From positions 1-64,000 of IMG/VR virus record IMGVR_UViG_3300023283_000146: a DNA stretch of 64,000 bases; one strand, 5' to 3'. The translations under genes were made by a program, and so were the position numbers. The first letter of the stretch is position 1. Every line of letters starts with the position of its first letter. Below are positions 1 through 35,292 of the stretch, one piece after another. Under the pieces are notes generated by a model. It ran no database searches, was not told where the DNA came from, and saw only the letters and a program-made list of their open reading frames with translations. The stretch comes from a virus.

Positions 1-401
1 GTTCCAGCCCCACTAGCCGAAAAGGCCAGCAGTCCACTGGACGTTCCTGACAACAGCGGTAACGTTCCAGCCCCACTAGCCGAAAAGGCCAGCAGTCCAG
101 AGGCTGTGCCCTGCAGCAAGGGCAGGACGGCCGTCGCTGTGGCCGTAAACGTCAGCGAACCTGCCGCTGTGCCCAGCAGGAGCGGTAGGTCGCCTGTGGC
201 TGTGCCGCTGAAAACCAGCGAACCCGCCGCTGCGCTCTGCAGCAACGGCAGGGACCCGTCAGCGGTCCCTGAGAAGACTTGTTGACCCGAGGCAGAACCT
301 TGCAGCAACGGCAGGTTGCCTGACCCACTTCCCGAGAAAGTGAGGTCACCAGACCCTGAGCCAGTCAGAAGCGGCAGATTGCCACTACCTGTGCCGCTAT
401 A
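1..401 (-). repeat. coding tandem repeat, 63-nt period, at least 6 units (peptide LPLLxGxxxGxLxFxGxxxGx)
   Basis: LPLL recurs exactly every 21 residues in my translation. Plus-strand bases 1-36 and 64-99 are identical. Confidence 0.85.
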
Positions 402-1631
402 GGTGTCTTGCTCTAAGAGGAGGACCGCGAACGTGTGTCCTGAAGCAGCGTCTGTTGTTTTGTTCAGCGTGAAGCCATCGCTGTCCCAAGAGTCAACATC
501 TGCTTCAAAAACTTTCACCTTGCGGTGGTTGGTGAAGTTGAAACTTTGGCTGCCGTCTAAGAAGCTTGAGTTATTTGAGGTGCTCTGTGCTTCCTGTTCT
601 GTGTGGCCAATACAGGTTTCTTCGCCCCGGTCGTTCGCAAACAGTAGCCCGCCACCACCCATATCATTGTTGTAGGTGACGGCAGAGTCAGGCCAGCCAT
701 AGTTGTCTACCTGGAAAAGCCCCAGGAACGCTTGCGGTTTGAAGCCAACACCCGTGAAAGCTTCTGTGCCCGTAGTGGCGTCAGTGTTGTAATGTGCAAG
801 CGCAACTGCGTTGTCTGGAAACCTAATAGCCAGGTAGCCAATCCTTGGGCCACTGCCTGTGTCTCCAAAATCTCCAATATCAGAGCTGATCTCAAATCCT
901 GTAGAAGTCCAAGAGTCCAGCTCAGTTGAAGGGAAGATGTTTGTTGCTGGCCGTGCACTTTGACCAAGGTTGCGGTAACGCATACCGCCGTTTTCACTGG
1001 TCGAGGCCCCGGTCTCAGCAATCCAAGAGATGCCTCTTGACTCCGAACCATCACCTGGGGTCCGAACTGTCAACGCAAAGTTTCCAACAAGCAAGTTGGA
1101 CGGTATTGCATTGAAGTCCATATAGCCAGACAATGTGAATAACATGTCTGGCTTGAACCCAACGTTCACAGCTGTGGTGCCTGCACCAATCGCTGGTGGC
1201 ACCTCAGAACCTACGGCAACTTCAATATCGTCGCCAAAGAACATGACGACTGAGATTTCGTAGGCAACACTAGGTGCGTTGATCCAATCGATTCGCACCC
1301 CACCAGAGATGAACGAGTCCATGTCAGCTCGCCCATCGAGGCTGCCCGCATCATCCGTGATCAGAACAGCACTAATGCTCTGACCTGTGCGAGATGTGTC
1401 CATCGTGCTGACATTGTCTTCCGACTGCAGCACGACCCCCTTCTCAGTCGTCCCGTCTGTAAAAGCGACCGACCAGACCCGCCCATCAAAGAGCGAGCCG
1501 TCGTCGGTCGTAGCTAGGGTGACTAAGAAGATCGCCGCTTTCGGCGTCTCCGAGACACCCGAAATAGTGATGTCTTGCGTCCCTGTCGACGTGTTAGCGT
1601 TGACAGTCGTCGACCGGATAGACGCAATCAC
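1..1631 (-). CDS. hypothetical virion-module protein, truncated by the left window edge; C-terminal part is an exact-period 21-aa repeat array
   Basis: Absent from the ORF track because no stop lies inside the window. Hand translation of the minus strand from GTG at 1631 (first start after an in-frame TGA) stays open for 543 codons to position 1. Same strand and directly downstream of portal and the 147-aa gene. Confidence 0.6.
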   Translation of the reverse strand, partial: MIASIRSTTVNANTSTGTQDITISGVSETPKAAIFLVTLATTDDGSLFDGRVWSVAFTDGTTEKGVVLQSEDNVSTMDTSRTGQSISAVLITDDAGSLDGRADMDSFISGGVRIDWINAPSVAYEISVVMFFGDDIEVAVGSEVPPAIGAGTTAVNVGFKPDMLFTLSGYMDFNAIPSNLLVGNFALTVRTPGDGSESRGISWIAETGASTSENGGMRYRNLGQSARPATNIFPSTELDSWTSTGFEISSDIGDFGDTGSGPRIGYLAIRFPDNAVALAHYNTDATTGTEAFTGVGFKPQAFLGLFQVDNYGWPDSAVTYNNDMGGGGLLFANDRGEETCIGHTEQEAQSTSNNSSFLDGSQSFNFTNHRKVKVFEADVDSWDSDGFTLNKTTDAASGHTFAVLLLEQDTYSGTGSGNLPLLTGSGSGDLTFSGSGSGNLPLLQGSASGQQVFSGTADGSLPLLQSAAAGSLVFSGTATGDLPLLLGTAAGSLTFTATATAVLPLLQGTASGLLAFSASGAGTLPLLSGTSSGLLAFSASGAG

Positions 1632-5988: not shown

Positions 5989-6270
5989 CCGAACGACCTA
6001 CTCGACCTTGTCTTCTGCCGTGGCCTGAGGTCGTTCGGCGTAAGTCCGGCCCAGCACAGCGGTTACTCTACCTACTCTACCTACTCGACTTGAGAGAGAG
6101 GAGAGAGATCAGAGTTGCAGGTCGCCCCGCTGGGCAAATGCACCGATCTCTCCTGGTTTTGTTGCAAAGGTCGAGTAGGTCGAGTAGGTCGTTCGGGGCC
6201 TGTGCTCTGAAGGAGTTACGGCGAACGACCTTGAAACACACAGGTCGAGTAGGTCGAGTAGGTCGTTCGG
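5989..6270. repeat. composite repeat element A: direct and inverted GGTCGAGTA / CGAACGACC motifs around a GAGAGGAGAGAGATC tract (weaker copies extend to about 6420)
   Basis: ccgaacgacctactcgacc (5989), ctactcgac + gagagaggagagagatc (6080-6110), ggtcgagtaggtcgagtaggtcgttcgg twice (6169-6195, 6243-6270). The same order of sub-motifs recurs at 43147-43421. Confidence 0.85.
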
Positions 6271-6539
6271 GCGTCTAGGTTCAGGCCTGAACGTGATGGA
6301 AGCTGTGTGTAGGTGATGAAGCTGAATCGGGTCAAGGGCCGATGCGTCTTGACTCGACCTACGGTGGCTCGAACGACCTGCGGCCCCCGCCGCTCGACCT
6401 GGGTGAGGCGGGTCGAGTTGGAACAAGAGACAAGTTTGGTTTTTGGTGGAAATGTCTCGAGCGTCGGAGCGGGCCAAAGTGAGCCCCCCTACCGGGGGTC
6501 CCTCTTACCGAACTTTTACGACAAATCTATTTACTGAAG

Positions 6540-6668
6540 TCTTACGTAAGACTTTCGTAAGATTACACAACTCTTACAGTGATTCACTAAAGCCCCAGTC
6601 TTACGTAACTCTTACGGTGATTCACTAAAGTTGCAGTCTTACGTAACTCTTACAGTGATTCACTAAAG
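6540..6668. repeat. one perfect TCTTACGTAAGA palindrome (6540-6551) followed by a 38-bp tandem repeat x3 (core CTCTTACRGTGATTCACTAAAG at 6571, 6609, 6647)
   Basis: Read directly from the sequence. Confidence 0.9.
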
Positions 6669-6695
6669 TCTCGGTCTTACACAAGTCTTACCAAG

Positions 6696-6770
6696 AAAGG
6701 CTAAAGGTGAAAGAAGCTGGGGAAAGGCTAAAGGTGAAAGAAACCCGGGAAAAGCTAAAGGTGAAAGGGC
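6696..6770. repeat. 26-27-bp tandem repeat x3 (core GCTAAAGGTGAAAG at 6700, 6727, 6753)
   Basis: Read directly from the sequence. Purine-rich on the plus strand. Confidence 0.9.
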
Positions 6771-7390: not shown

Positions 7391-7397
7391 GGCTAGG

Positions 7398-7484
7398 CTA
7401 GGCGAAAGCGACAAGAGCGCTAAGGGTAAGGCCCAGGGCGGCGGCGCGGACGGCGAGAGCGGTAAGACGAGGAGCGGTAGGCAT
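7398..7484 (-). CDS. possible 28-aa hydrophobic peptide (MPTAPRLTALAVRAAALGLTLSALVAFA)
   Basis: Not in the track (too short); my translation. Begins with the same 12 nt as the next gene and sits just downstream of the duplicated GC-rich leader. Confidence 0.3.
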   Translation of the reverse strand: MPTAPRLTALAVRAAALGLTLSALVAFA

Positions 7485-7575
7485 GGCTAGCGGTAGGGTT
7501 AGGGGCCCGGGGGCGGCCGGGCCGGCCGGCGGGGCCGCGCCCCGCTATATGGAGATAACGGCTAGCGGGGGGCCT
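7485..7575 (-). promoter_or_regulatory. GC-rich upstream/leader element, copy 1 (copy 2 at 9032-9115)
   Basis: Shares aggggcccgggggcggccggg (7501-7521 = 9044-9064), then ccccgc-(N)-atat and acggctagcggg blocks with copy 2. Both abut a minus-strand ATG. Confidence 0.4.
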
Positions 7576-7595
7576 AACCTTTAGGCCCCCCGCTA
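7563..7595 (-). terminator. 15-bp stem hairpin downstream of gene 7636..8043
   Basis: tagcggggggcctaa / ttaggccccccgcta with a 3-nt loop. Confidence 0.45.
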
Positions 7596-7635
7596 ATATA
7601 GCCGCGCTTACCGTAAGCTACGCTAACGGCAATAC

Positions 7636-8043
7636 TTACGCCCCCAGGTCCCCGAACGGGCCCCCCAGGTAGGGCCCGTAGCTAGGGGCGCCCGGCCGGC
7701 GCGGACAAAGGGCGGCCCAACGCCGTACTAGCCGCTGTAGCGCCCGCCGCTGGTGCCCTTTGGCCCGGCCCCGCTGGGCGTTTACCGCCCGCGCCACCGC
7801 GGCCCGTAGGTAGCCGGGGCCGCGCCCGTGGTCCGGTAGCGCTGCTCCTAGGGCCCGTAGGTCGGCTGGCGTAGCGTAGTAGCCCGCTAGGGCGTCCTCC
7901 GCTACGGTAGCGGTAAGCGCGGCGGCCCCGTTGGGCCTAGCGTACGGCCTAAGGGCCGCATGCCCACGCAAGGCGGTAAGTAGGCGGGCGGTCGGGGGCG
8001 TAGCGCGGCGGGCGGCGCGGCGGCGGCGGAGCGGGGAGCGCAT
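7636..8043 (-). CDS. hypothetical Ala/Arg-rich protein (135 aa)
   Basis: ORF track, the only long frame here. Upstream context ccctagctactactagctATG lacks a Shine-Dalgarno. Confidence 0.5.
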   Translation of the reverse strand: MRSPLRRRRAARRATPPTARLLTALRGHAALRPYARPNGAAALTATVAEDALAGYYATPADLRALGAALPDHGRGPGYLRAAVARAVNAQRGRAKGHQRRALQRLVRRWAALCPRRPGAPSYGPYLGGPFGDLGA

Positions 8044-8132
8044 AGCTAGTAGTAGCTAGGGTAGCGGCGGGCGGCGCGGGGGACCGCCCCCCGCGCACAA
8101 CGTTACTTTTCGGCTAGGGCGGCCGGGGCCCT

Positions 8133-8564
8133 TTAGCGGCTTAGCGGTTTACGGTACGGCAAGCGCCACAAACCTTTAGCGCCCGCCAGCCAGTCGCCCC
8201 CGCCGGCCGGCTGGGGCCCGCCGGCCCGTAGCCGGGCTAGCCGGTAGGCCCAGCGGCGCTCGTTCCGCTGGTCCGTTTGGCCTAAAGCCGTTAGGGCTTC
8301 TAGGTACGCTACTAGTACGTTTATAGCCGTAGGGCGGCCCCGCCATTTGTAGCGGCTTTTGTAGCTGTTGTGGTCGGTAAGCCGTAGCGCTAGAAAAGCT
8401 ACTTCTTGAACGGGCCCGGCTACGTATACGGCTAGGGCCCCGTGTACTGCCCGTAGCCGGTTACGGGTAGCGGCGTCGAGCTCGGGTTCGGCTAGGTAGC
8501 GGGCCGTTAGGCTTAGGGCCGCGGCGGCAATGCGCCGGTTACGTACTTTGTGGGGGGCTTCCAT
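8133..8564 (-). CDS. hypothetical protein (143 aa)
   Basis: ORF track. A 9-bp GC hairpin (8074-8096) lies downstream. Confidence 0.5.
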   Translation of the reverse strand: MEAPHKVRNRRIAAAALSLTARYLAEPELDAATRNRLRAVHGALAVYVAGPVQEVAFLALRLTDHNSYKSRYKWRGRPTAINVLVAYLEALTALGQTDQRNERRWAYRLARLRAGGPQPAGGGDWLAGAKGLWRLPYRKPLSR

Positions 8565-8586
8565 AGCGTAGTAGTGGCGGGGGCGC

Positions 8587-8787
8587 CTATTGCTTTTCTT
8601 CTTGGTACTCCACCGTGTCGTCCACGCCTGCTTCGTAGGCTTTTTGTACTAGCTCAAAAAGTTGGAACCGGGTCAGGATAACCGGGCCTTGGCGGAGCGC
8701 GTAGGCTACAACGCCAAAGTATTCGTCAATCACACAGTCCGCCATCAGCTCGCTGGTCTCGATGGGGTGTCCGTCGTATTTGCGCAT
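8587..8787 (-). CDS. hypothetical 66-aa protein, tandem paralog B
   Basis: ORF track. Clearly homologous to 8831..9031 (MRxxDGHP..SELMADCxID.YF....Y....GP.xLTR.QL..LVQ.AY.AGV...VEYQ.EKQ). Conservation at protein level supports coding. Confidence 0.7.
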   Translation of the reverse strand: MRKYDGHPIETSELMADCVIDEYFGVVAYALRQGPVILTRFQLFELVQKAYEAGVDDTVEYQEEKQ

Positions 8788-8823
8788 GGTAGGTAGGTAG
8801 GTAGGTAGGTAGGTAGGTAGGTA
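8788..8823. repeat. (GGTA)9 microsatellite, i.e. (TACC)9 on the coding strand, abutting the ATG of 8587..8787
   Basis: Nine perfect units counted. They fill 36 of the 43 intergenic nt between the two paralogs. Confidence 0.95.
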
Positions 8824-8830
8824 GGGCCGC

Positions 8831-9031
8831 CTATTGCTTTTCTTTTTGGTACTCCACGCCTTCGCGCACCCCCGCTACGTACGCTATTTGTACCAAGCTT
8901 AGCAGCTGGTAGCGGGTTAGCAGCGCTGGGCCCCCGCGCTCTACGTAGTTGTCGGTGTTGAAGTAGTCGTCGATCAGGCAGTCCGCCATCAGCTCAGAGA
9001 CTTGCTCGGGGTGTCCGTCGTGGTGGCGCAT
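8831..9031 (-). CDS. hypothetical 66-aa protein, tandem paralog A
   Basis: ORF track. Paralog of 8587..8787, preceded by cctacgctacctaccATG. Confidence 0.7.
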   Translation of the reverse strand: MRHHDGHPEQVSELMADCLIDDYFNTDNYVERGGPALLTRYQLLSLVQIAYVAGVREGVEYQKEKQ

Positions 9032-9115: not shown

Positions 9116-9454
9116 CCCCGGTAACCTTAGCCTACCTAGCCCGTTTAGCGGATTTACGGCCCTAAGCGTAGCCGTAAGCTAGGCTTACGGCCCCCGCCCC
9201 CTAGCGAGGGCCCTAGCGGGGGCCTACGGCCCGGCCGCCCCTTAGCGCTCCGGCCCTACGGCCCCGGGGCCGGGCCGTAAGGCCGCTAGCTTAGGGGCCC
9301 CTACGGCCCCGGGGGCCGCCGGCCGTTTAGCTAAGGCCCGGGGGGCCGGCCGGCCGACTAGGCTAGCTGGGCGCGCGCCCCGCCCTACTAGGGGCCGTTG
9401 CCTTTAGCTCATTACCAAAATAATACGTAAGATTTGAGTATGGTCTTACCTACG

Positions 9455-9672
9455 TCTTACGTAAGAACCGTGTAAGACAAGCTTGTTTACATAGATCTTA
9501 CGTAAGACTTGAGTAAGGCCGTCTGCGCACGATTTACGAAGATCTTACGTAAGACTTGAGTAAGATCGTGATTCTTACGAAGATCTTACGTAAGACCTTC
9601 GTAAGATCGTGATTCTTACGAAGATCTTACGTAAGACTTGAGTAAGACTTACGTAAGACTTGTTCTTACGAA
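9455..9672. repeat. array of five perfect 12-bp palindromes TCTTACGTAAGA plus one 10-bp version, embedded in about 41-49-bp tandem units
   Basis: Perfect copies at 9455, 9496, 9543, 9584 and 9625; CTTACGTAAG at 9648. Unit starts GATCTTACGTAAGAC. Confidence 0.95.
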
Positions 9673-9706
9673 GATCTTACTAAAGTTCGGCAACCGATCG
9701 ACCGAA

Positions 9707-9787
9707 ACACAAGTCACCCTCCGACCAAAACACAAGTCACCCCTTGACCGAAACACAAGTCACCCTCCGACCAAAACACAAGTCACC
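9707..9787 (+). repeat. 4 x 23-bp direct repeats, each carrying ACACAAGTCACC
   Basis: Motif starts at 9707, 9730, 9753 and 9776. Three or four more degenerate copies follow up to the ATG at 9889. Confidence 0.95.
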
Positions 9788-9888
9788 CCGTAAGGAAACC
9801 GTAAGAACGCAAGTCATCATTTGCCACCACGCGTCGACAAGGTATCCTTGCCCAGTCACCAGTAACACCAAGTCATCACCAAGTCACC

Positions 9889-10101
9889 ATGGAACACAAC
9901 ATCCGCAAGAACACAGAGCACGATGCCTGGGAAGTCATCGATGAGCTCGGCTACGTGGTCATCCCCACCACTCCGCACACGATGCGGACGGCTCGGCAAG
10001 CAGCCTACCTGGCGGCCCTGCTGGAGCTCGCTGAGCAGAATGACCAAATCGCTCGGCAAGTCACGGCTCTGCAAGAAGACATCCTCGCAGACCACAGCTG
10101 A
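9889..10101 (+). CDS. hypothetical early protein (70 aa)
   Basis: ORF track. ATG directly preceded by ACCAAGTCACC. Confidence 0.7.
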   Translation: MEHNIRKNTEHDAWEVIDELGYVVIPTTPHTMRTARQAAYLAALLELAEQNDQIARQVTALQEDILADHS

Positions 10102-10110
10102 GGCACTGCT

Positions 10111-10257
10111 GTGAAGGCTACCGATCAAGAGCTCGACCGCATGGCCGCTGGGCAAATGGTGCTGTGCGGTTGCTGCCGCGCTGCTGAAGCCTACGCACTG
10201 ACTTTGTGCGAAGAGCTCCTGTGCGAAGAGTGCTGGGATGCACACCTGAGTCAATAG
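10111..10257 (+). CDS. possible Cys-rich mini-protein (48 aa, GTG start)
   Basis: Not in the track. My translation is VKATDQELDRMAAGQMVLCGCCRAAEAYALTLCEELLCEECWDAHLSQ. Fills the gap between neighbouring genes. Confidence 0.35.
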   Translation: MKATDQELDRMAAGQMVLCGCCRAAEAYALTLCEELLCEECWDAHLSQ

Positions 10258-10283
10258 CAAGTCACCCCCAACAACAAGTCATC

Positions 10284-10700
10284 ATGCAAGAATACGACAT
10301 CACCCTCCTGGACGACGGCACCCTCGACACTGTGTTCGTGTGCAATCTCTGCGAGCAGGAGCTCCGCTACAGCCACATCCAACGGGACGCGGAAGGCGAC
10401 ATCGAACCGGACGAGCTCGACCGAGTGCTGGACGAGCACGCGGAAGAGTGCGAAGCCTTCGCTGCTGTGGAGTGGCGGGCCCGGAATGCTTTCGCCCGCC
10501 AAAGCCTGACCACGTTCCCCCAGGCCGGCCTGGGCGGATGCCGCGAATGTGGTCAGGAGGCCCCGAGCATACGGCTGGACCCTGACTCTGGCCGCCCCCA
10601 GGAGCTCGGCCATTTCTGCAGCTTCGCCTGCGCAGCCACCTTCCTGGGCATGGAGGATGAAGAGATCGAAGCGTGGGAATGGTGGGGCCCCGAAGCCTAG
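10284..10700 (+). CDS. hypothetical early protein (138 aa), CxxC-rich
   Basis: Track ORF 10206..10700 trimmed to the ATG butted against CAAGTCATC. CNLC, CRECG and CSFAC motifs are present. Confidence 0.7.
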   Translation: MQEYDITLLDDGTLDTVFVCNLCEQELRYSHIQRDAEGDIEPDELDRVLDEHAEECEAFAAVEWRARNAFARQSLTTFPQAGLGGCRECGQEAPSIRLDPDSGRPQELGHFCSFACAATFLGMEDEEIEAWEWWGPEA

Positions 10701-10770
10701 CCGCAGGTTTCTCGAAGAAACCTAAGGCCCAGCCGCCAACAGGACGATATACAGAAGGCAAGGGCACCAA

Positions 10771-10812
10771 CAAGTCACTCCGCAACACAAGTCACTCCGC
10801 AACACAAGTCAC
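10771..10812 (+). repeat. 3 x 17-bp direct repeats carrying CAAGTCAC, the last abutting the ATG at 10814
   Basis: CAAGTCAC at 10771, 10788 and 10805. Confidence 0.9.
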
Positions 10813-10813
10813 C

Positions 10814-11437
10814 ATGAACACCATCATCGACACCAAATACACCCAGCCCACTGTTCGTGTGCATCTCGCATACGACAGTCTCTACAATCCCGCGCTGGAT
10901 CTCGACGGCAACACTGACCCTGAAACGTGCGCAGCGCTGAAGCGGGAGATCGAGCAGATCGAGCGGGGGGAGCTGACCCCCGTGTGTGTTTGGCAAGAAC
11001 GGCACTGCCGCTGCTGTGGCACCTGGAGCCGAGAGGGGGATGTCATGGGCGTCATCGTCGGCAGTATCGAGGAAGCCTGGGGCTACGTCAAGAGCGAAGA
11101 CTTGTTGGCCACGCCGCAAGCCACGCGTGCTGATGCTCTGCGCGAGCTACACGAGGACATCTCTGCCTTGCGCAATCACATGGAAACAGCTGGCCTGGAC
11201 ACCAAAGGCCAACAGCTGGCCGCCCGTCGAATGGCCTCCTTGCAGCAAGAGCTGAACAGGGTGAACCGGCAAAGGCTACTGGAGGAGCTGAGAACGTTCG
11301 CAGAGACCATCGTGGACTACGGCGTGCCCACCGTGGGCGCTCGTCAGATCGTGCAGCAGCGACTGATCAGCAACACGGCTAAGGTGCTGCGGGAACTGGA
11401 TCAGCTGGATGCCGAGTACGATCCCAGTAAAGCCTAA
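10814..11437 (+). CDS. hypothetical early protein (207 aa)
   Basis: Track ORF 10673..11437 trimmed to the ATG preceded by CAAGTCACC. Confidence 0.7.
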   Translation: MNTIIDTKYTQPTVRVHLAYDSLYNPALDLDGNTDPETCAALKREIEQIERGELTPVCVWQERHCRCCGTWSREGDVMGVIVGSIEEAWGYVKSEDLLATPQATRADALRELHEDISALRNHMETAGLDTKGQQLAARRMASLQQELNRVNRQRLLEELRTFAETIVDYGVPTVGARQIVQQRLISNTAKVLRELDQLDAEYDPSKA

Positions 11438-11488
11438 AGCCTGGGGCCTGGGCAGCCGATAAGGTTCCTACACATGCGACAAGTCACC

Positions 11489-12337
11489 ATGAGCAACCGC
11501 TTCTCTGCCTCCAACATCGACCCCTCCGAGTGGGCGGAGGTTCTCGTGTTCCACTACAACGTGGAGGTCGATGGCTGGCCTGTGCCAGCCTACAATCTCG
11601 AAGCCCTCATCGCATTGCGCCAGGCGAACCCGGGCCGTTTCTTCCAGCATGAGAACGGGGGCTGCGCAATCTGTGGTGCGCGGTTCAAGTACGGGTCGGT
11701 CTTCCGCAACGAACAGACGGGCGACCACATTGTGGTCGGGTGGATCTGCGCGGAGAAGCTGGAGCTCACAAGCGACTTGGCCGCCCACCGCATGGTCAAG
11801 GAACGGGCCTTTGCCGCACAGCGGCGCACGCTGCGGCGCAGGGAGCTCTTCCGCTGGGCGCAAGCCAATCGTGATTTGCTTCCGCTGTTGCGTGTGGACC
11901 ATGGCATTACCCGTGACATCCGGCGGCAGGTGATTGCACGCCCCGAGCGCGGCCTCACGGGCCCACAGATCGATCTACTCCAGCGCCTCAAGCAGCAGGT
12001 CGCGGAGAAGGAGAAGCGTGACCAGGAGCCCAAGGTGCCGGCGCCGGAAGGGCGGCACACCATCGAAGGTGAGCTCGTCTCAGCCAAGCATGTTGACTCG
12101 GACTACGGCGTGCAGACCAAGATGGTGGTGAAGATCCAACAGCCGGAAGGGTCCTGGGTAGCCTACGGCACGATGCCGAGCATTCTCGAGGACACCTTGT
12201 GGGAGAGAGGGATCATGTTTGACCAGTTGCGAGAAAAGCAACTGCATGTACGGTTCACAGCTACCTTCAAGCGTAGCAATCGCGAAGAGCATTTCGCCTT
12301 CGCGAAGCGTCCTACTAAGGCTGAGCTACTCAGCTAA
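11489..12337 (+). CDS. hypothetical early protein (282 aa)
   Basis: Track ORF 11474..12337 trimmed to the ATG preceded by GACAAGTCACC. Confidence 0.75.
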   Translation: MSNRFSASNIDPSEWAEVLVFHYNVEVDGWPVPAYNLEALIALRQANPGRFFQHENGGCAICGARFKYGSVFRNEQTGDHIVVGWICAEKLELTSDLAAHRMVKERAFAAQRRTLRRRELFRWAQANRDLLPLLRVDHGITRDIRRQVIARPERGLTGPQIDLLQRLKQQVAEKEKRDQEPKVPAPEGRHTIEGELVSAKHVDSDYGVQTKMVVKIQQPEGSWVAYGTMPSILEDTLWERGIMFDQLREKQLHVRFTATFKRSNREEHFAFAKRPTKAELLS

Positions 12338-12368
12338 CACCACAAGTCACCAACCGACAAGTCACCTC

Positions 12369-12632
12369 ATGCGACTGCTTGAACAAATGAACGCTCTGCG
12401 CGACGGCCGTGTGCACGGCGGCTATTCCTGGGCTGCTGTCATGGCCGATGGTGAACTGCTCTGTGAAAGCTGCTTCACCGCACATTTCCGCTACATCTTC
12501 TGCACTACATGCGAAGATGATGACAGCAATACCCAGTGGAGGTTCATCGGGTTGACCAACAGTGGCGAAGCTGAACACACTGTGCACTGTGCACAGTGCA
12601 ACCGAGAAATCTGGAACCTGGAGAACGACTGA
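12369..12632 (+). CDS. hypothetical Cys-rich protein (87 aa)
   Basis: Track ORF 12219..12632 trimmed. Two motif copies lie upstream (CAAGTCACCAACCGACAAGTCACCTC-ATG). Confidence 0.65.
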   Translation: MRLLEQMNALRDGRVHGGYSWAAVMADGELLCESCFTAHFRYIFCTTCEDDDSNTQWRFIGLTNSGEAEHTVHCAQCNREIWNLEND

Positions 12633-12826
12633 TGAAGATCGAACGTCTTGGACACTACGCCCCCGGCAGCTTCGGGCTGCCGACACGCCACAATGAGCAG
12701 CGCACTGTCGTGCCTGTCTGGACGTGTGGGCGTCGTCGGAATGGACCAGACAACAAGCCATGTGTGCACTCCAGCCGCGAGGAGGCACGGGAGTGCCGGC
12801 GCCGAAGCACAAAGGTGCCCACGTAA
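12632..12826 (+). CDS. hypothetical protein (64 aa)
   Basis: Internal ATG of track ORF 12596..12826, overlapping the previous stop (TGATG). Confidence 0.5.
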   Translation: MKIERLGHYAPGSFGLPTRHNEQRTVVPVWTCGRRRNGPDNKPCVHSSREEARECRRRSTKVPT

Positions 12827-12838
12827 GCTTCGATCACA

Positions 12839-13087
12839 ATGAGTTCGATCACAATGAGGAACCCGAACCGCCAGCTGGCGGAAGTCGAAGTCGAACGGGT
12901 CGAGCCCCACTGGGCCTACGTGCGCATAGCACGTAGGCTGGACCCCGCCTTCCGTGGCCCGCCATCAGCGCTACGGCGTGGGATCGATATCAGCCACAAG
13001 GCCCAGGTGGGCGACTATGGTGTGCTTTGGTACATCGTTGGGCCGACCTATGGGCTGCAACAAGTCATCCTCATTCACAGGGACTAG
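12839..13087 (+). CDS. hypothetical protein (82 aa)
   Basis: ORF track; fits the gap in the operon. Confidence 0.5.
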   Translation: MSSITMRNPNRQLAEVEVERVEPHWAYVRIARRLDPAFRGPPSALRRGIDISHKAQVGDYGVLWYIVGPTYGLQQVILIHRD

Positions 13088-13104
13088 CGCAATACCAAGT
13101 CACC

Positions 13105-13524
13105 ATGGCACAGCACCAATGGCACCCTGGGCAAGAAGTCTTGCTATGGGCTGTCGATCGCCCAGGCGGGCTGATGAGGCCCAGCAAGGCCGTTATTGAT
13201 CGAGTGCTCAAGACAGGCCACGCGGTCCTGCGCATGCGCTCGGGACCACGATTCCGCCCAGACGGCACCCAAACCGGAGACCCGCTTCGGCACAGCAGGA
13301 TACAGCCCTGGGACGAGGAAGCGAGCCGCCTGGTACAGCAGTACCAGACGGCCGACCAAGCACGACGGGCTGCGCATGCGCTAGAGGGGCTGTTGAGTAA
13401 CGTACGCCCAAGGTGTCTCAAGTCTTGCGACTGGCAGCAGATCCATGAAGAGCTCTGCTCTACAGACAAGACAGTACGAAAGCTGATCGATTTACGGAAT
13501 AGGGAGAATGGTAGCGCTGGATAG
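13105..13524 (+). CDS. hypothetical protein (139 aa)
   Basis: Track ORF 13027..13524 trimmed to the ATG preceded by ACCAAGTCACC. Confidence 0.65.
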   Translation: MAQHQWHPGQEVLLWAVDRPGGLMRPSKAVIDRVLKTGHAVLRMRSGPRFRPDGTQTGDPLRHSRIQPWDEEASRLVQQYQTADQARRAAHALEGLLSNVRPRCLKSCDWQQIHEELCSTDKTVRKLIDLRNRENGSAG

Positions 13525-13620
13525 GTGCAAACCCTATACTTGTAGTGCGATGGTGACTTGTCGCTTTCTCTGCTGTGGTGTGGTGACGGCCGCAGCAGGG
13601 AAGAACCCTCCTGAAGGGTA

Positions 13621-13660
13621 GGGGCCTGTGCAGCGTTGGTGTCTGCACGGGCCCCTTTCT
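13621..13660 (+). terminator. rho-independent-type terminator splitting the early operon
   Basis: 13-bp stem ggggcctgtgcag / ctgcacgggcccc (one G-U pair), 9-nt loop, then TTTCT. Confidence 0.65.
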
Positions 13661-13709
13661 ATGTTGCCGCCTGGCGTTGCGTAGGCTAGCCTTACCTGCA
13701 CAGGCGCAG

Positions 13710-13913
13710 ATGAGTAAGGCACAGAGAGATCAACAGCACGTCGTTGTGCTCCGCGACGGGACAGTCATAGGGCCCTTCACTGCCCGTGAGGCCATCCAGT
13801 TCGTTCGCACAGGCATACGCTTGCCGAGATCCTCTGAGCTCCGTCATGCTTTCGTGCGCCCGCGCCTGCCCAAGGATGAGCCGAAAGATCCAAGACAAGT
13901 CACCCTTGAATGA
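13710..13913 (+). CDS. hypothetical protein (67 aa)
   Basis: Internal ATG of track ORF 13677..13913. First gene after the terminator. Confidence 0.5.
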   Translation: MSKAQRDQQHVVVLRDGTVIGPFTAREAIQFVRTGIRLPRSSELRHAFVRPRLPKDEPKDPRQVTLE

Positions 13914-14269
13914 ATCCGCAAACACAAGTCACCCCTGGTGAGCTTCGAATGCCTGGTGCGCTCCAAGAGCTTCGGCCATTTCTCTTGGATGCAGCTAAAG
14001 GCTATGAGACACGCCGAGAGCACCGTTTGGCTGAACCTTGCCATGTGCTAGCAACAGCCATTCAACTGCATGCCCGGCTCGATCTCACAGAGTTCGGTTG
14101 GGAGCATTTCCATGCACTGCGCCAGGCAGCTTCTGCAGCTTATTTCCACAGTGAAATAAGTGAAGAGCGTTGTATGTTCCTGATGTTGTGCGTACTGTGT
14201 GATGGTGCCTTGGACAACAGCTGTTGTCGCAAATGGCACCTGTCAGATCTGCCTACGGTGGTGTCGTGA
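13910..14269 (+). CDS. hypothetical protein (119 aa)
   Basis: ORF track. ATGA overlap with the previous gene; CAAGTCACC lies 5 nt upstream of the ATG. Confidence 0.55.
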   Translation: MNPQTQVTPGELRMPGALQELRPFLLDAAKGYETRREHRLAEPCHVLATAIQLHARLDLTEFGWEHFHALRQAASAAYFHSEISEERCMFLMLCVLCDGALDNSCCRKWHLSDLPTVVS

Positions 14270-14394
14270 TGTCAATCACTACGGTTGAGCTTTCAGACGG
14301 CCGTGTTGCTGATATCTACAGTCTGACCTTTGGGCGGGCCAGGCTTGGTGTCCGAGCAGCAGACAGCCTCAGCTATGATGACGCTTGGTGATAT
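14269..14394 (+). CDS. possible 41-aa protein
   Basis: Not in the track. The ATG overlaps the previous stop (TGATG); my translation is MSITTVELSDGRVADIYSLTFGRARLGVRAADSLSYDDAW. Confidence 0.25.
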
Positions 14395-14528
14395 AGCTCT
14401 TGGGATGCTGCGGTCGCAGCAGTGCAGCAATGGGACCCCCGAGAGCAAACAGAGCCAATGGGCTGGATACGTCACCCCAGCAGTGGCCGTAGTCAAGAGC
14501 TAGGTGGTGAAAAGCAAGTGATCCGTCA

Positions 14529-15092
14529 ATGGACCAGTCGATGAAAAGCGATAGACAAGTCATCTCCGAGCTACGAGCTCAGGTGGACTACTACAAGACG
14601 CGAGAGGAAGCGTTCTCAGCTGCTTTACAGGTACCTGACGAGGCAGAGGTTGATTGGGCGGCGCGGCTGCGAGGATTGCTGAGTGAACGTGATGGCCTAC
14701 GGATGCAGGTGCGAATGTTCGAGAACCTGGTTCAAGAACAAGCTCTTACTGGCGAACCCAGAGATGGCCACTACACCAATGATTTGCTGACTATGCAATG
14801 GCGCTGGCGTGCAGTTGCATATCTGCTTACGGCACGACAGTTGTGTCGGGCACTAGGTGAGGAGCCTGATGAAGAGACGTTGGGCTATGCCTACAATCGC
14901 GACAATGTTGAGTTGCATGCTGTGTTGGGGATGGCAAAAGCAACACAAGTCACTCTTGAAGACATCAAGCGTTGGACAGACCAACAGTGCCAAGAGGCAT
15001 ATGAGTGGGGGCTCATATTCTTTTTGAGCCGTTGGCGACAAAATCAGCCTTACGTTCCGCCACGCCCACAGCACGTTCCTGGGGTTCAATAA
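14529..15092 (+). CDS. hypothetical protein (187 aa)
   Basis: ORF track. Contains two internal CAAGTCA copies (about 14557 and 14946). Confidence 0.65.
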   Translation: MDQSMKSDRQVISELRAQVDYYKTREEAFSAALQVPDEAEVDWAARLRGLLSERDGLRMQVRMFENLVQEQALTGEPRDGHYTNDLLTMQWRWRAVAYLLTARQLCRALGEEPDEETLGYAYNRDNVELHAVLGMAKATQVTLEDIKRWTDQQCQEAYEWGLIFFLSRWRQNQPYVPPRPQHVPGVQ

Positions 15093-15131
15093 GGCCACAT
15101 AAACACAAGTCATCGCCCAACACAAGTCATC

Positions 15132-15410
15132 ATGAAGCCTTTGCGAAAACGTTCTAGCTATTCTTTAGTCAAGTTGCGTGAAGACTTGTGGGAGCTCCGA
15201 CAAAAAGTCGGAACTCTTCTAGAGCCACAACTCACACAACGGCTTCAAGAAGTAGAACACGAACTCAACCGCAGAGACGCGGCACTGCCTGCTTGCCTGT
15301 GTTGTCAACAACGAATCTGCATTCCGCTAGATGAAGACTGCATAGAGGTTGAAGCTATGCAGGGGTGGGTTTGCAGCAGAGAATGTCAAGAAGCCCTAGG
15401 CACAAAATAA
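15132..15410 (+). CDS. hypothetical protein (92 aa)
   Basis: ORF track. Two motif copies upstream, the second butted against the ATG (CAAGTCATC-ATG). Confidence 0.65.
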   Translation: MKPLRKRSSYSLVKLREDLWELRQKVGTLLEPQLTQRLQEVEHELNRRDAALPACLCCQQRICIPLDEDCIEVEAMQGWVCSRECQEALGTK

Positions 15411-15655
15411 TGGCGCAACCGCTAGGATCAGGAAAAGAACGTGAGTCACTATTCGCTCAACGTTTGCAAGAGCAACGTTTGGCCAAAGGCTGGTCTTATG
15501 AAGCCTTGTCTCGCAAGACCACACTGAGCAAAGAACACATAGGTCGTATCGAGCGTGACGAAAACTTACCGTCGCTGGATCTCTTTGAAGAGATTTGCAT
15601 CGCCCTAGATGTGCGCCCTGACTACTTGTTGGGTTGGAGCAACAAACCGAGATAA
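15410..15655 (+). CDS. XRE-family helix-turn-helix protein (81 aa)
   Basis: Internal ATG of track ORF 15365..15655, overlapping the previous stop (TAATG). FAQRLQEQRLAKGWSYEALSRKTTLSKEHIGRIERDENLPSLD is a typical Cro/C1-type HTH. Confidence 0.75.
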   Translation: MAQPLGSGKERESLFAQRLQEQRLAKGWSYEALSRKTTLSKEHIGRIERDENLPSLDLFEEICIALDVRPDYLLGWSNKPR

Positions 15656-15801
15656 TGTCACCCCCGAAAGTCGAAGTGAAGTGTATTTCTTGTGGCCATC
15701 GTTGGCTCGTTGGGCCACGTGAAATCGATGAAGATGACATGCCCATTTGCCCTAAGTGCAGTGACATTGGTGTTGCTGTAAGGGCACGAAACCACCGCTA
15801 A
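15655..15801 (+). CDS. possible zinc-ribbon mini-protein (48 aa)
   Basis: Not in the track. TAATG overlap. My translation is MSPPKVEVKCISCGHRWLVGPREIDEDDMPICPKCSDIGVAVRARNHR (CxxC...CxxC). Confidence 0.45.
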   Translation: MSPPKVEVKCISCGHRWLVGPREIDEDDMPICPKCSDIGVAVRARNHR

Positions 15802-15815
15802 ATCTCCAAGTCATC

Positions 15816-16010
15816 ATGGGCCGACGCCGAACCAAGAAGCCTGTCGAACAAGCAGAGCAACCGAAGAAACCTTCCCGTCCGAAGCTGAGAAAGCGCCCTC
15901 TTGAGCCAGGGGCGAGACACCTCAGCAGAGAAAAAGTGCTCCACATCTATGGGCACAAGGCCCAGCAAGTGAGCCCGGCCGGCAAGAACAAAGGCAAGAA
16001 GGGATCTTGA
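15816..16010 (+). CDS. hypothetical highly basic protein (64 aa)
   Basis: ORF track. ATG preceded by CCAAGTCATC, the last start-abutting copy of the motif. Confidence 0.5.
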   Translation: MGRRRTKKPVEQAEQPKKPSRPKLRKRPLEPGARHLSREKVLHIYGHKAQQVSPAGKNKGKKGS

Positions 16011-18439: not shown

Positions 18440-18849
18440 TGACCTCCACGCTTCATCCCTTACTCGTTCGCCATGCCCAGTCGCTTGGGCTCCAAGTCAT
18501 CGAGACTCCGTGGCCGGCATGGCACGGGCCCAACACGGTGTGCGCGGACTGCGATGAAGACCTGTCGCACGAGATCGCGCACTGGCTGCTCGCTCCCCCG
18601 AGCCGGAGAAGACGGCGATGGTTCGGGCTCGGGCACCCCAACAATGGCGGCAGGGGCGGCGGCGTCACGTGGTCCTTCGCGCTGGAGGAAGAGAAGCAGG
18701 CCAGCCTGCTCGGCATCCTTCTGGAGCGCTCAGCGAGTATAGACCCGATGCCTACATGGAGGGACCACGGGTGGCACTACAACATCTCGGGCGCTGCGGC
18801 GGTCCTGCGTGAGCTACGCAGGAAGGGCCTCTACCCAGTGACCTTATGA
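18439..18849 (+). CDS. hypothetical protein (136 aa) with an HEIAH motif
   Basis: Internal ATG of track ORF 18370..18849 (TAATGA junction). HExxH at DLSHEIAHWLL. Confidence 0.55.
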   Translation: MTSTLHPLLVRHAQSLGLQVIETPWPAWHGPNTVCADCDEDLSHEIAHWLLAPPSRRRRRWFGLGHPNNGGRGGGVTWSFALEEEKQASLLGILLERSASIDPMPTWRDHGWHYNISGAAAVLRELRRKGLYPVTL

Positions 18850-19209: not shown

Positions 19210-19800
19210 ATGACTCAGCACGACCGCGACACATACGCCATCGCCCGAGCCCTCAACCTGCTCCCGCCCTCCCCCGAAGCCAGCGCAGCGCACGAAGCGC
19301 TGACGAGGCTGAGCGACGCGGTCCACTGGCTGGAGAGCGAACGGGACAAAGCGCGGCGCCTCCTTGCCGGTGCCGCTGAACGTGCGGAAGAGGCGTTGTC
19401 TGAGGCTGGACTCGACAGCGCGCAGGCCGAGGGCGATCTCCGCTATTACGCGACCAGGCCTGCTGTGCGCGACGCGATTGGAGTGCTGGCCAAACACATC
19501 AGTCAGGATCGGGCCCAGATCGAGCAACTCCACTCCCGCCCCTGCCCATACGTCCGTGGTGAAGAGGGCGAGACGCAGTGGTGCGGGCTCGCTGAGGACG
19601 TCGTAGCGAAGAATCACTTTCGGATCACGGACCTCCAGGATGAGGTCAAGCGACTCCGCCATGCCCTGGCGTACTACGCCGACAGAAGCCAGTACGAGTA
19701 CCTTACGTGGTACGGCGTCGAAGGCCAGCAGATCTGCAACCCGCCCGTGCTCAGCGACCGAGGCGCAGTCGCGCAGCGCGCCCTGGGAGAACCCGAGTGA
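19210..19800 (+). CDS. hypothetical protein (196 aa)
   Basis: ORF track. Confidence 0.6.
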   Translation: MTQHDRDTYAIARALNLLPPSPEASAAHEALTRLSDAVHWLESERDKARRLLAGAAERAEEALSEAGLDSAQAEGDLRYYATRPAVRDAIGVLAKHISQDRAQIEQLHSRPCPYVRGEEGETQWCGLAEDVVAKNHFRITDLQDEVKRLRHALAYYADRSQYEYLTWYGVEGQQICNPPVLSDRGAVAQRALGEPE

Positions 19801-20114
19801 ACGAAGACCGCAAGCTCGACCGCCACCAGCGACGTGAAGCCGACAACCTGCTTGAGCAGGTCATCAAGGACCCTGAGGCAGCAGCTCATGAGATCGTGTG
19901 GCTGCGAGCCGCACTTGCCGAGCGGGGGTGGCATCCAATCGAGACGGCGCCGGACGAAGAAGAGACCTTCCTCGTACTCTGCGACGGCTCACCCTTCCTG
20001 GTGGACCGCATTGCTGGCAGGTGGTTTCTCGGAGGACCCGAAGAGGTAGAGGTGCACCCCACTCACTGGATGCCTATTCTCGATCCGCCCCTTCGCAAGC
20101 CAGAAGCTGAGTAA
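19797..20114 (+). CDS. hypothetical protein (105 aa), DUF551-like C-terminus
   Basis: GTG overlapping the previous stop, within track ORF 19707..20114. GWHPIETAPDEEETFLVL resembles the DUF551 pattern as I recall it. Confidence 0.5.
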   Translation: MNEDRKLDRHQRREADNLLEQVIKDPEAAAHEIVWLRAALAERGWHPIETAPDEEETFLVLCDGSPFLVDRIAGRWFLGGPEEVEVHPTHWMPILDPPLRKPEAE

Positions 20115-20347
20115 TGAACAAAACAGCAAGATCAACGAAGCCTGAGTTTAGCGATCGTTTGTACAGTGCACGTCTTAGACGTGGCTTTACGCAAGAAGAG
20201 TTGGCACAGCAAATAGGGCTAACACGAGTCAGTGTCTCCAACATGGAAGCTGGCGCACAAAACCCTAAGATAGAGACACTGCACCGTTTGTGTAGTGCTC
20301 TTGTGACAACCCCAGATTATTTTCTGGGGTATCGCAAGAAAATGTGA
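20114..20347 (+). CDS. XRE-family helix-turn-helix protein (77 aa)
   Basis: ORF track. LYSARLRRGFTQEELAQQIGLTRVSVSNMEAGAQNPKIETL is a typical HTH. TAATG junction. Confidence 0.75.
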   Translation: MNKTARSTKPEFSDRLYSARLRRGFTQEELAQQIGLTRVSVSNMEAGAQNPKIETLHRLCSALVTTPDYFLGYRKKM

Positions 20348-20355
20348 TGATTTAT

Positions 20356-21315
20356 TCAGGAAGGGTTGATGGCATGTACAGTGGCCGGTTCAACCTTCAC
20401 TTTGTTGAGTAAGCCTAGACTCTTGCCGTCTCTTCGTACCTCCAGGTTACCCTGGCAATCGTAGATCCAAAGAGGATCAACATCCTCAATGTCCCAGACA
20501 GCATAGTCGTCCGGGGTGCCTTCTTCACGACCAAAGTGACACCCACGCACGTACAGCCCACGTGCTGTGGCCTTCGGGCCGTTATCTCCAATACGGGTTG
20601 TCAACACAGCCGTTGGTCCTCCAGGCGGACCGTCTTTGCCGAACGGGTTGGAGAGCATTGTGCAACGAACCATTTGTGCCCAGGGGCGGCCTTCGATGTT
20701 GACCATGCCTCTGGAAGTCTGCTGCATGCGATTGTCCAGGACAGTGTCAGCTAGAACGACTGGGGTTTTGAGTGACCCTTGGCCATCGCCAAAGTTGTTC
20801 TTGTCTGGGGCCTGGAAGCTGTATGCGTAGGCCCCACGGTAACGACCCTCATTCCCTGGGCGAAGCACAGCCGTATTGGCCGCACCACAACGCGAGAGCA
20901 CAACAATAGGACCGTAGCCCTCGCGCCAATCAGGGTGCACTTCCCATTCTCTGTCGATGACTTGCCAGGCTTGGCCGCCCACATTACGAACAAAGCAACG
21001 GGACCAGAGCACCATGTCACTGTGCTTCAGCCGGCGCATACAGCCGTAGTACCAAGCATGCTCTACACCTACATGATCAGTGCGGACATTACGGAACACT
21101 CCGTTCTGAAGTGAGTAGCCGCGGCCACCCCACTTCTCTGCCCCATGGATATGGATGTTTTCGAGCAAGAAGTCACGAACAGACTCCCACGAGTCTGGAT
21201 ACTCCTTGTATGCGATAGAGCATGACAAACCGACATGCTCAAAGTTGAGGAACGCGACATCAGCCAGATGTTCATCTGACTTGAACTTGTAGAAGGTATC
21301 TAGGTTGATTTCCAT
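20356..21315 (-). CDS. hypothetical protein (319 aa), possibly a parallel beta-helix fold
   Basis: ORF track. A lone minus-strand gene convergent with the early operon. Recurrent short hydrophobic-x-N/G rungs (NIHIHG, FRNVRTD, CFVRNVGG, LADTVLDN, RCTMLSN, VRGCHFG) are weak evidence only. Confidence 0.6.
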   Translation of the reverse strand: MEINLDTFYKFKSDEHLADVAFLNFEHVGLSCSIAYKEYPDSWESVRDFLLENIHIHGAEKWGGRGYSLQNGVFRNVRTDHVGVEHAWYYGCMRRLKHSDMVLWSRCFVRNVGGQAWQVIDREWEVHPDWREGYGPIVVLSRCGAANTAVLRPGNEGRYRGAYAYSFQAPDKNNFGDGQGSLKTPVVLADTVLDNRMQQTSRGMVNIEGRPWAQMVRCTMLSNPFGKDGPPGGPTAVLTTRIGDNGPKATARGLYVRGCHFGREEGTPDDYAVWDIEDVDPLWIYDCQGNLEVRRDGKSLGLLNKVKVEPATVHAINPS

Positions 21316-21462
21316 GAAGTCACCTTTTGGGGCCTACTGACAGCTTAGCGCATGAAGCAGCACCAACGTCCAACGGAACATCAGGTTCTCGAGGCATACC
21401 CCAAAGGCACCATTTTCGACTTCCCAGGTAAAAACTCACGACTAACAGCTCGTAAGCGTGTG

Positions 21463-32177: not shown

Positions 32178-32180
32178 TGT

Positions 32181-33616: not shown

Positions 33617-33846
33617 CTGGGTTTCTGGTCATGGTTTGAGCCGCGCACCCGATTCATCAGTGTCTCTTGGTCGTATCGCAGCCTAGCTGCAGCAGCGATG
33701 AGTGCGTGACCAGCCTGAGTCAGAGCACAAGACAAGCACGGTGAACATTGTAGCTCATCTATGTTCTTCACCCTCACAACCATGCAGCCACAACTCATCC
33801 TCTCAACAATCTCTTCAACGTCCTCTAGGAACGGTCGCTCGTCCAT
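33613..33846 (-). CDS. hypothetical Cys-rich protein (77 aa)
   Basis: ORF track. CGC...CSPCLSC; ATGA overlap. Confidence 0.5.
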   Translation of the reverse strand: MDERPFLEDVEEIVERMSCGCMVVRVKNIDELQCSPCLSCALTQAGHALIAAAARLRYDQETLMNRVRGSNHDQKPS

Positions 33847-35089: not shown

Positions 35090-35292
35090 CAGGGGTTGTC
35101 TTTCCCACGCTTTTTCTCTCGAGCTTGCTGCATGGTCACCTGCATTAGCGCACAAGTCATGGCTAAGGCTTCCTCACGGGTTACGTTTTCTTCACCGCAA
35201 AATGCACGAAAGATGCTAGCGTATGTCGGTACAACATGCTCTTGGATCTTTGCCAGGGCTTGATCAAGCCTGTGGATGTCTATCGGATCCAT
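35089..35292 (-). CDS. hypothetical protein (67 aa)
   Basis: Track ORF 35089..35355 trimmed to the ATG overlapping the upstream stop. Confidence 0.45.
   Translation of the reverse strand: MDPIDIHRLDQALAKIQEHVVPTYASIFRAFCGEENVTREEALAMTCALMQVTMQQAREKKRGKDNP

Follow-up and report, generated by a model that had tools for sequence, protein, structure and literature searches.

How ribosomes choose start codons in the absence of a Shine-Dalgarno (SD) sequence and how a phage controls translation of a whole class of genes are poorly understood, and both questions are raised by a short repeated element in IMG/VR virus record IMGVR_UViG_3300023283_000146. The stretch analyzed (positions 1 to 64,000 of that record; here, the window) represents most of the genome of an uncultured siphovirus. 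It contains a plus-strand operon of small ORFan genes at 9.7 to 20.3 kb, in which the motif CAAGTCAYC repeatedly runs into the ATG of early genes. The motif most likely acts in mRNA, controlling where and when these genes are translated, and it marks an early gene set, probably for host takeover or antidefense, of an uncultured lineage with probably hypermodified DNA.

Motif copies, start codons, and Shine-Dalgarno pairing

Exact matches to CAAGTCAYC number 25 in the 64 kb, against 1.49 expected, a count reached in 0 of 100 shuffles. Twenty-three are on the plus strand, 21 of them at 9710 to 15815, and three CAAGTCACT variants (10771, 10788, and 14946) bring the early-operon family to 24 plus-strand copies in this interval, with a further copy at 18493. 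Structural genes contain no copy. The information content describes (A/C)A-N-A-CAAGTCAYC with random flanks, and copies are bimodal, having either 0 to 1 mismatch or a background level of similarity, with no tail of decaying copies.

An ATG lies directly 3' of the motif at 9889, 10284, 10814, 11489, 13105, 15132, and 15816 (7 of 25 copies); at 12369 and 13910, motif and ATG are separated by 2 and 5 nt, respectively. All motif-led genes start with ATG, and the abutted ATGs open tiling open reading frames (ORFs). A second, independent gene caller, run on a Logan contig (L406) identical to the window, chose the same starts, and the start at 11489 is favored over an upstream ATG at 11474 by homologue alignment. 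Several additional copies sit within the 3' ends of upstream genes, ~45 nt or less from the next start. The initial annotation had reported these contacts and gaps, the tandem arrays (four copies with a 23-bp period and three with a 17-bp period), the doublets, and a single inverted copy; all were recovered, the inverted one at 13552-13560, and every coordinate given checked out (Table 1). The tabulation of distance and strand that it proposed gives 24 of 25 copies within 9.7 to 15.8 kb on the sense strand, with one inverted, and locking to ATG with a binomial P of 8.5e-8.

The early proteins are mutually unrelated and there is no paralogy among motif-led genes, which weighs against gene duplication as the source of the repeated motif. 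Since the core is kept before unrelated ORFan genes and the flanks are not conserved, the core appears to be under constraint. Two further patterns were considered and set aside. The copies within coding sequence (about six or seven) are all in frame CAA-GTC-AYN (Gln-Val-Thr/Ile), but codon usage accounts for this, since the rare codons TCA and AGT, which the other two frames would contain, are avoided. The AAGTCA 6-mer is also strand biased across the window (67 on the plus strand versus 11 on the minus strand), and outside the operon (21 to 64 kb) this bias is a codon effect, NNT-GAC-TTN in minus-strand genes, with 24 of 30 occurrences in one frame.

Table 1. Motif copies, promoter-like sequences, and other start-proximal features of the early region
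Feature	Position	Strand	Basis or context
Four motif copies (9710, 9733, 9756, 9779) in a 23-bp tandem array; unit ~43% C, 9% G	9693-9790	+	Repeat analysis
Copy CAAGTCATC, ending 2 nt before the P1 -35 hexamer	9810-9818	+	
Promoter-like P1, TTGCCA-16-TATCCT; predicted start ~9855; resembles P2	9821-9848	+	Consensus match
5' leader of gene 1: partial copy CCAGTCACC (9852-9860) and copies at 9869 and 9880, the last abutting ATG 9889	9852-9888	+	
Doublet, 17-nt spacing; first copy adjoins the upstream gene's stop codon, second abuts ATG 10284	10258-10283	+	
Triplet, 17-nt period, at 10771, 10788, and 10805 (CAAGTCACT twice, then CAAGTCACC); last abuts ATG 10814	10771-10813	+	
Single copy abutting ATG 11489 (282-aa gene)	11480-11488	+	
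Doublet, 15-nt spacing, 2 nt before ATG 12369	12343-12366	+	
Exact tandem 15-bp duplication, TTCGATCACAATGAG twice, giving in-frame ATGs at 12839 and 12854; TCACAATG is possibly a diverged motif (weak)	12829-12858	+	Sequence inspection
Copies at 13061 (within the 3' end of the upstream gene) and 13096 (abutting ATG 13105)	13061-13104	+	
Sole inverted copy; plus-strand RNA is GCGAUGGUGACUUGUCGC	13547-13564	+	Lies in a 187-nt gap that follows the gene end at 13524
Strong intrinsic terminator, GGGGCC...GGCCCC then UUUCUAUGUU; end of first early unit	13620-13666	+	
Promoter-like P2, TTGCCG-17-TAGCCT; head of second unit	13664-13692	+	Consensus match
Copy 5 nt before ATG 13910 (within the 3' end of the previous gene) and copy at +15 in the gene (13925)	13896-13933	+	
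Degenerate copy CAAGTGATC 5 nt before ATG 14529 and exact in-gene copy at 14556	14515-14564	+	
Internal copy CAAGTCACT, in frame Gln-Val-Thr	14946-14954	+	
Doublet, 17-nt spacing; second copy abuts ATG 15132	15106-15131	+	
Single copy abutting ATG 15816	15807-15815	+	
Isolated in-gene copy, in frame Gln-Val-Ile, in the operon's high-GC second half	18493-18501	+	
Leaders of divergent genes: (CCTA)7CC-ATG at 8787 (microsatellite 8800-8826), CTACCTACC-ATG at 9031, CTACTACGCT-ATG at 8564, and CTACTAGCT-ATG at 8043		-	

Motif-led starts are also distinguished by their lack of an SD. SD strength was taken as the energy of the duplex that the 20 nt preceding the start form with GAUCACCUCCUUA and averages about -1.7 kcal/mol for the nine motif-led starts, compared with -4.0 kcal/mol for random 20-mers, -6.6 kcal/mol for other plus-strand genes (about half of which have an SD), and -6.4 kcal/mol for late genes (about half with a clear SD). 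These energies indicate that the host ribosome uses SD sequences and that they are avoided at motif-led starts. Genes of the operon without the motif overlap the upstream stop codon (ATGA or TAATG) or carry SD-like purines. The earlier description of an element without an SD is therefore correct, pairing being weaker even than that of random sequence.

Some versions of the motif, UCACC(C)UCC, resemble the anti-SD tail (UCACC) and are not complementary to it. Recruitment through rRNA pairing, a form of one of the options raised initially, is not supported: with Escherichia coli 16S rRNA (rrsH) as a proxy for the host molecule, which may differ, the best RNAduplex energies are -9.8 to -12.3 kcal/mol, and 69 to 88% of shuffled motifs, with and without AUG, pair at least as well.

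The motif appears to be restricted to this phage among the sequences searched. It is absent from 80 IMG/VR loci related by terminase (45 to 65% identity), and no ATG-abutting repeated 7-mer of any sequence was found in ~85 related phage loci by a scan that does recover AGTCACC in the window; the motif-start register sought in relatives was thus not found. In scans for motif doublets in viral, metagenome, and GTDB genome collections, the matches listed were all unrelated tandem repeats, without protein homology to the window.

Action in RNA or in DNA

Several properties of the motif point to RNA. The mean unpaired probability from RNAplfold is 0.147 for motif 9-mers and 0.034 for all transcript windows, and motif copies mostly exceed the 85th percentile. 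Neighboring copies are spaced by 11, 15, 17 (four times), 23 (three times), 29, 31, or 35 nt. At the commonest spacing, 17 bp, neighbors lie on opposite faces of B-DNA; spacings without helical phasing are awkward for cooperative DNA binding and immaterial for RNA. A role in translation initiation or at mRNA 5' ends had been suggested from the register alone. The general suggestion is supported by that register, by the confinement to one strand, the loss of SD sequences at motif-led starts, the predicted single-strandedness, and the nonhelical spacings; a leaderless-promoter core is disfavored.

The motif can tentatively be interpreted as an RNA-level, SD-free "start-associated" initiation module whose invariant core is recognized, as an operator, by a trans-acting regulator of the entire early class. 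The G-poor, A/C-rich motif would keep the start region unpaired, enabling host ribosomes to initiate without an SD, and the core, CAAGUCAYC running into AUG, would serve as the operator through which a trans factor acts on the whole early class at once. The effect is more likely to be repression or shutoff, by analogy with T4 RegA, and the factor could be a protein unrecognizable by sequence or the phage's own inverted copy, located in the 3' untranslated region (3'UTR) of the first unit (13547-13564).

The neighboring divergent genes are informative in this respect. Those on the minus strand with starts at 9031, 8787, 8564, and 8043 also lack an SD, and another repeat, which is likewise ATG-abutting but pyrimidine rich, (CCTA)n or CTACTAGCT, precedes them. 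SD-free initiation in this host does not, therefore, depend on CAAGUCAYC, and the invariant core is more likely to be a specificity determinant for a trans factor. A site on the AUG, a second site ~17 nt upstream, and an array in the leader together parallel RegA operators and the dual sites and sponges of CsrA.

Other observations weigh against an RNA operator. The accessibility of the motif is partly a consequence of its G-poor composition, and a repressor footprint alone would not demand an exact 0-nt register. If P1 is the only promoter, the five copies at 9710-9818 are untranscribed and would need a role at the DNA level or be neutral. When every early product and many other proteins were scanned with Pfam and PHROG, no RegA, RegB, S1, KH, CsrA, Hfq, or nuclease domain was detected, leaving no RNA-binding family among the scanned products. 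As the motif occurs in no relative among the loci and listed matches, covariation and co-occurrence lend no support. For the inverted copy as the factor, there is only one such copy, and ~0.5 opposite-strand 9-mers are expected per window by chance.

The inverted copy is nevertheless a suggestive candidate for a trans regulator of the early class. Its RNA, GCGAUGGUGACUUGUCGC, is perfectly complementary to a 15-nt stretch (GCGACAAGUCACCAU) at the gene 11489 start and to 12 nt (motif plus AU) at typical motif-led starts, and the net gain from pairing is -9.5 to -21 kcal/mol at motif starts versus approximately -3.5 kcal/mol at motif-less starts. The variable positions of the core are only C or U, and both stand opposite G in the inverted copy, giving G-C or G.U pairs. 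The inverted copy itself forms a weak hairpin (-4.5 kcal/mol), followed by two further hairpins and the terminator, a layout that, suggestively, is typical of 3'UTR-derived small RNAs. The gap after the first nine early genes (13565-13666) consists of these two hairpins and the strong intrinsic terminator, with P2 immediately after, indicating that the early "operon" comprises at least two transcription units.

A riboregulatory timer would bring these elements together, although as a complete scheme it is distinctly unlikely. A small RNA from the 3'UTR of the first unit, just upstream of the terminator and with GGUGACUUG as its seed, would pair with 12 to 15 nt (motif plus AU of AUG) at ≥9 SD-less starts and switch off the early class, and the motif arrays of the leader, serving as a sponge, would set the delay. 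A still more exotic possibility is that the motif recruits a NusG/RfaH-like coupling factor, which would deliver the nascent AUG to a ribosome and so substitute for an SD. Another complement of the motif core (AAGUCACC) is found at the start region (21313-21325) of a minus-strand gene encoding 319 aa (20356-21315), where the sequence AAAAGGUGACUUCAUG also constitutes a GGUGA-type SD.

The lack of an SD at motif-led starts and the predicted accessibility are also compatible with a purely positive function. The motif would then be an SD-independent landing or standby site in the manner of the tobacco mosaic virus omega leader or CA-repeat enhancers, possibly via S1, with additional copies adding capacity and with no regulator. 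CA-rich translation enhancers have reportedly been described, copies are stacked over the ~45 nt preceding starts, some of them in the 3' ends of upstream genes, a ribosome-positioning element is expected to hold a fixed register, and only unmodified host ribosomes are available to translate the first gene. However, an effect based on composition requires no invariant core of 7 to 9 nt, and the neighboring operon uses another C-rich leader. Complementarity to 16S rRNA (E. coli proxy) is missing, and the in-gene copies at +15 and the array upstream of P1 are unexplained. An enhancer without a regulator is considered unlikely.

The arrangement around P1 raises the alternative of a DNA operator resembling stoperators, i.e., an asymmetric site for a phage DNA-binding protein, with copies bracketing P1 and acting as roadblocks in the operon. 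P1 is directly preceded by five copies (9710-9818), the closest of them 2 nt from the -35 hexamer, and three lie between the -10 hexamer and the first ATG, which suggests an operator-like bracket if P1 is the only promoter. Stoperators are similarly asymmetric, intergenic, and oriented, ~23-bp tandem repeats recall iterons, and several helix-turn-helix (HTH) proteins are encoded by the phage. Exact contact with the ATG and the coincident loss of SD sequences are, however, unexplained at the DNA level, helical phasing is absent, P2 is not bracketed, and P1 is only a match to a consensus, the P1/P2 pattern having ~4 chance occurrences expected per window. Upstream early promoters could also reside in the 41-bp repeats at 9412-9690, placing the 23-bp array within a leader, and the HTH_3 proteins are better matched to the TCTTACGTAAGA palindromes of those repeats. 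A DNA operator is, on this evidence, rather unlikely.

A recombination linker or selfish minirepeat is improbable. The motif would then provide boundary microhomology for swaps or insertion of early-gene cassettes or be a repeat spread by slippage, and be tolerated because it is unstructured. It flanks unrelated ORFan genes, tandem units with conserved spacers represent recent slippage, and the region is mosaic, with a jump in GC content at 16 kb; assembly graphs of Logan contigs from this phage, which are 100% identical to the window (no polymorphism), break at motif copies. In contrast, sharp conservation without decaying copies, strict orientation, and the 0-nt register argue for functional selection, and no exchange partners are seen, since no related phage shares the motif.

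A processing site, at or after which a RegB/MazF-like endoribonuclease of phage or host would cut, separating cistrons into leaderless or short-leader mRNAs, is quite improbable. Leaderless translation would be consistent with the AUG register and with ATG being the only start codon used; single-strandedness is predicted for the motif, and RegB offers a precedent as an early start-region nuclease with a long recognition site. Cleavage at the six to seven copies in coding sequence would, however, destroy those mRNAs, stacked upstream copies would be redundant, and no nuclease family was found in scanned products.

Some noncanonical polymerases have short promoters abutting the start site. Very improbable here, nonetheless, is a leaderless promoter or initiator for a phage-specific RNA polymerase or sigma-like factor starting at the A of ATG: motif-led starts are all ATG, three relatives (L122, L126, and L326) repeat promoter cassettes before small early genes, and the window is not the whole genome, but conservation is concentrated at -9 to -3, positions -12 to -7 read ACACAA with no -10-like TANNNT hexamer at motif-led starts, a promoter scan gave no hit at these positions, no RNA polymerase or sigma-like gene was found within the 64-kb window, tandem copies at 11 to 23 nt (senseless as promoter arrays) and in-gene copies would be poor promoters, and starts offset by 2 and 5 nt would acquire non-AUG leaders.

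The phage, its relatives, and neighboring repeats

Minus-strand genes of the window encode the small and large terminase subunits, portal, major head protein, tape measure, tail proteins, DNA polymerase, primase, and helicases. The closest cultured large terminases are those of Shewanella phage S0112 (51%) and of Rhizobium, Paracoccus, and Erythrobacter phages, and the top terminase relative among 5.8 billion database proteins is 66% identical. The host is probably a proteobacterium. Deposited phages (INPHARED) have no DNA match to the window, which contains no tRNAs and matches no Rfam family, even at E values up to 1. Beyond the portal gene and a gene for a 147-aa virion protein, an ORF of at least 543 aa (3-1631, minus strand) without a family match continues past the window edge at position 1; the genome is therefore incomplete in the window and longer than 64 kb. 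A set of thymidine hypermodification genes at 31128-36152 on the minus strand comprises a thymidylate-synthase-like gene, a 5-hmdU (5-hydroxymethyldeoxyuridine) DNA kinase (PF18723, 32181-33050), a flavin adenine dinucleotide (FAD) oxidoreductase, and an amino-acid:DNA transferase (PF18724, 35292-36152). Phage DNA probably contains hypermodified T, as in phages M6 and ViI.

Paired CxxC zinc-ribbon motifs occur in the early proteins from genes 10111, 10284, 10814, 11489, 12369, 15132, and 15655, and the product of the final motif-led gene (15816) is a very basic protein of 64 aa. Two proteins of the operon are of the Cro/CI HTH type (HTH_3 genes at 15410-15655 and 20114-20347). No close relatives of early protein g5 were found. 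Homologues of the 282-aa early gene (11489) in two other phages are located behind GGAGG or GAGGAG.

Relatives place longer cassettes, combining a promoter and an SD, before each small early gene. In L122 (4390-8144), a 50-bp element lies ~45 nt upstream of the ATG of each such gene, and in L126 (3056-9303), they are preceded by sigma-54-like promoters, TGGCAC-N5-TTGCT. The cassette of L326 (2000-7050) consists of a hairpin followed by CCGAAGAGG and the SD element AACGGAGAC, and several of the hairpin loops contain CAAGTC; the presence of this 6-mer both in the L326 cassette and in the GTAAGACTTG repeats upstream was judged possibly coincidental. Arrays of GGGCAGCGAT(G/T)nTTTTGG occupy an unannotated gap (19466-21460) in Shewanella phage S0112 (L205). 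An unrelated high-GC phage contig with a homologue of the 282-aa gene (L204, 9100-11420) contains a conserved SD start module, ACTGAGGAGCCACACTC-ATG, before at least two genes, which resembles the start-associated sequence of mycobacteriophages.

The (CCTA)n-type leaders are a second start-abutting system in the phage. The divergent genes that carry them (7393-9031) are located in a GC-rich, CTAG-rich island at ~6.72 to 9.40 kb, and two of these genes, 8831-9031 and 8587-8787, encode 66-aa paralogues. Between this island and the early operon are seven 41-bp repeats (9412-9690), which contain perfect palindromes, TCTTACGTAAGA, followed by CTTGAGTAAGA, and a related repeat cluster in the opposite orientation lies across the island at 6540-6720. 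The 41-bp repeats are probably operators or early promoters for an HTH_3 protein; they also contain GACTTG, the complement of CAAGTC in the motif. Farther upstream, noncoding sequence adjoining the small terminase gene (5990-6330) contains direct and inverted repeats of CGAACGACCTACTCGACCTACTCGACCT, which may be a packaging site or replication origin.

Comparison with known systems

T4 RegA and RegB and the start-associated sequence (SAS) of Cluster K mycobacteriophages had been put forward as the closest precedents. They are apt as analogies, but the motif does not belong to any of them. SAS elements occur in 11 to 19 copies in nearly a single orientation and are confined to nonstructural genes (Pope et al. 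2011, PMC3203893). They are located 3 to 7 nt upstream of starts, mostly ATG, and their consensus, GGGATAGGAGCCC, contains the SD core AGGAG (PMC3203893). Their function is still without a test (PMC12699233). The motif is similarly a short asymmetric repeat with many copies (~25 here) in one orientation, near the starts of unrelated nonstructural genes and with a preference for ATG. Unlike the SAS, it has no SD core, is anti-SD-like, and touches the ATG, with offsets of 0 nt (seven times), 2, 5, and 5 nt forming a tighter register. Furthermore, the motif forms direct tandem arrays, whereas the SAS is accompanied by ESAS inverted repeats, and host and phage lineage differ. The SAS consensus has 12 matches in the window at ≤3 mismatches, versus 14.8 expected, and none at early starts.

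RegA operators are unstructured and located at or immediately 5' of the AUG (PMC3014915). The motif resembles them as an unstructured site in this position on many early mRNAs, and RegA provides class-wide posttranscriptional shutoff. RegA sites are, however, A+U rich and degenerate and coexist with an SD, while the motif is a near-invariant C/A-rich 9-mer without one, and no RegA-family repressor was matched by Pfam or PHROG in the scanned products of the incomplete window. Like RegB/S1 sites of T4, the motif is found in intergenic start regions and marks the early class, but the RegB site is the SD itself (GG*AGRAYARAA), whereas the motif and its flanks lack GGAG and no nuclease was found.

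CsrA reportedly binds dual sites ~17 to 18 nt apart, one covering the start region, and multicopy sponge arrays. The paired motif copies ~17 nt apart, one at the start, are reminiscent of CsrA/RsmA targets, and the multicopy array could titrate a binder as CsrB/RsmZ sponges do. CsrA differs in being a host global regulator that recognizes GGA in hairpin loops; the motif is linear and lacks GGA, and no CsrA domain was found. Stoperators are said to be asymmetric, intergenic, and oriented with transcription. The motif shares with those of Cluster A phages (L5 gp71; 13-bp-class sites) the asymmetry, the many copies, the intergenic location, the orientation, and a copy at an early promoter. Stoperators act on DNA, however, and have neither a fixed register with start codons nor a link to loss of the SD. 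PMC3203893 contrasts stoperators with the SAS.

For the inverted copy, a precedent is c4 (immI) of phages P1 and P7, reportedly a short antisense RNA cotranscribed with its targets that pairs with ribosome-binding regions. The c4 RNA is a processed 77-nt molecule with two short pairing segments and one target operon, in contrast to the hypothetical RNA proposed here. Cluster K phages contain one opposite-strand SAS away from gene starts (PMC3203893). If the riboregulatory timer were true, this lone SAS in several of these phages would have the same meaning.

The motif is thus an SAS-like element without the two features that define the SAS, the SD core and the consensus. It does not correspond to a RegA, RegB, or CsrA site or, as far as its anatomy shows, to a stoperator, though it may work like one of these. 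Nine or ten near-identical, natural, SD-free starts precede unrelated genes, and SD-led and coupled genes on the same transcripts constitute internal controls. With the mycobacteriophage SAS unexplained since 2011, the motif would give a second example of a "start-associated sequence," free of the confounding SD.

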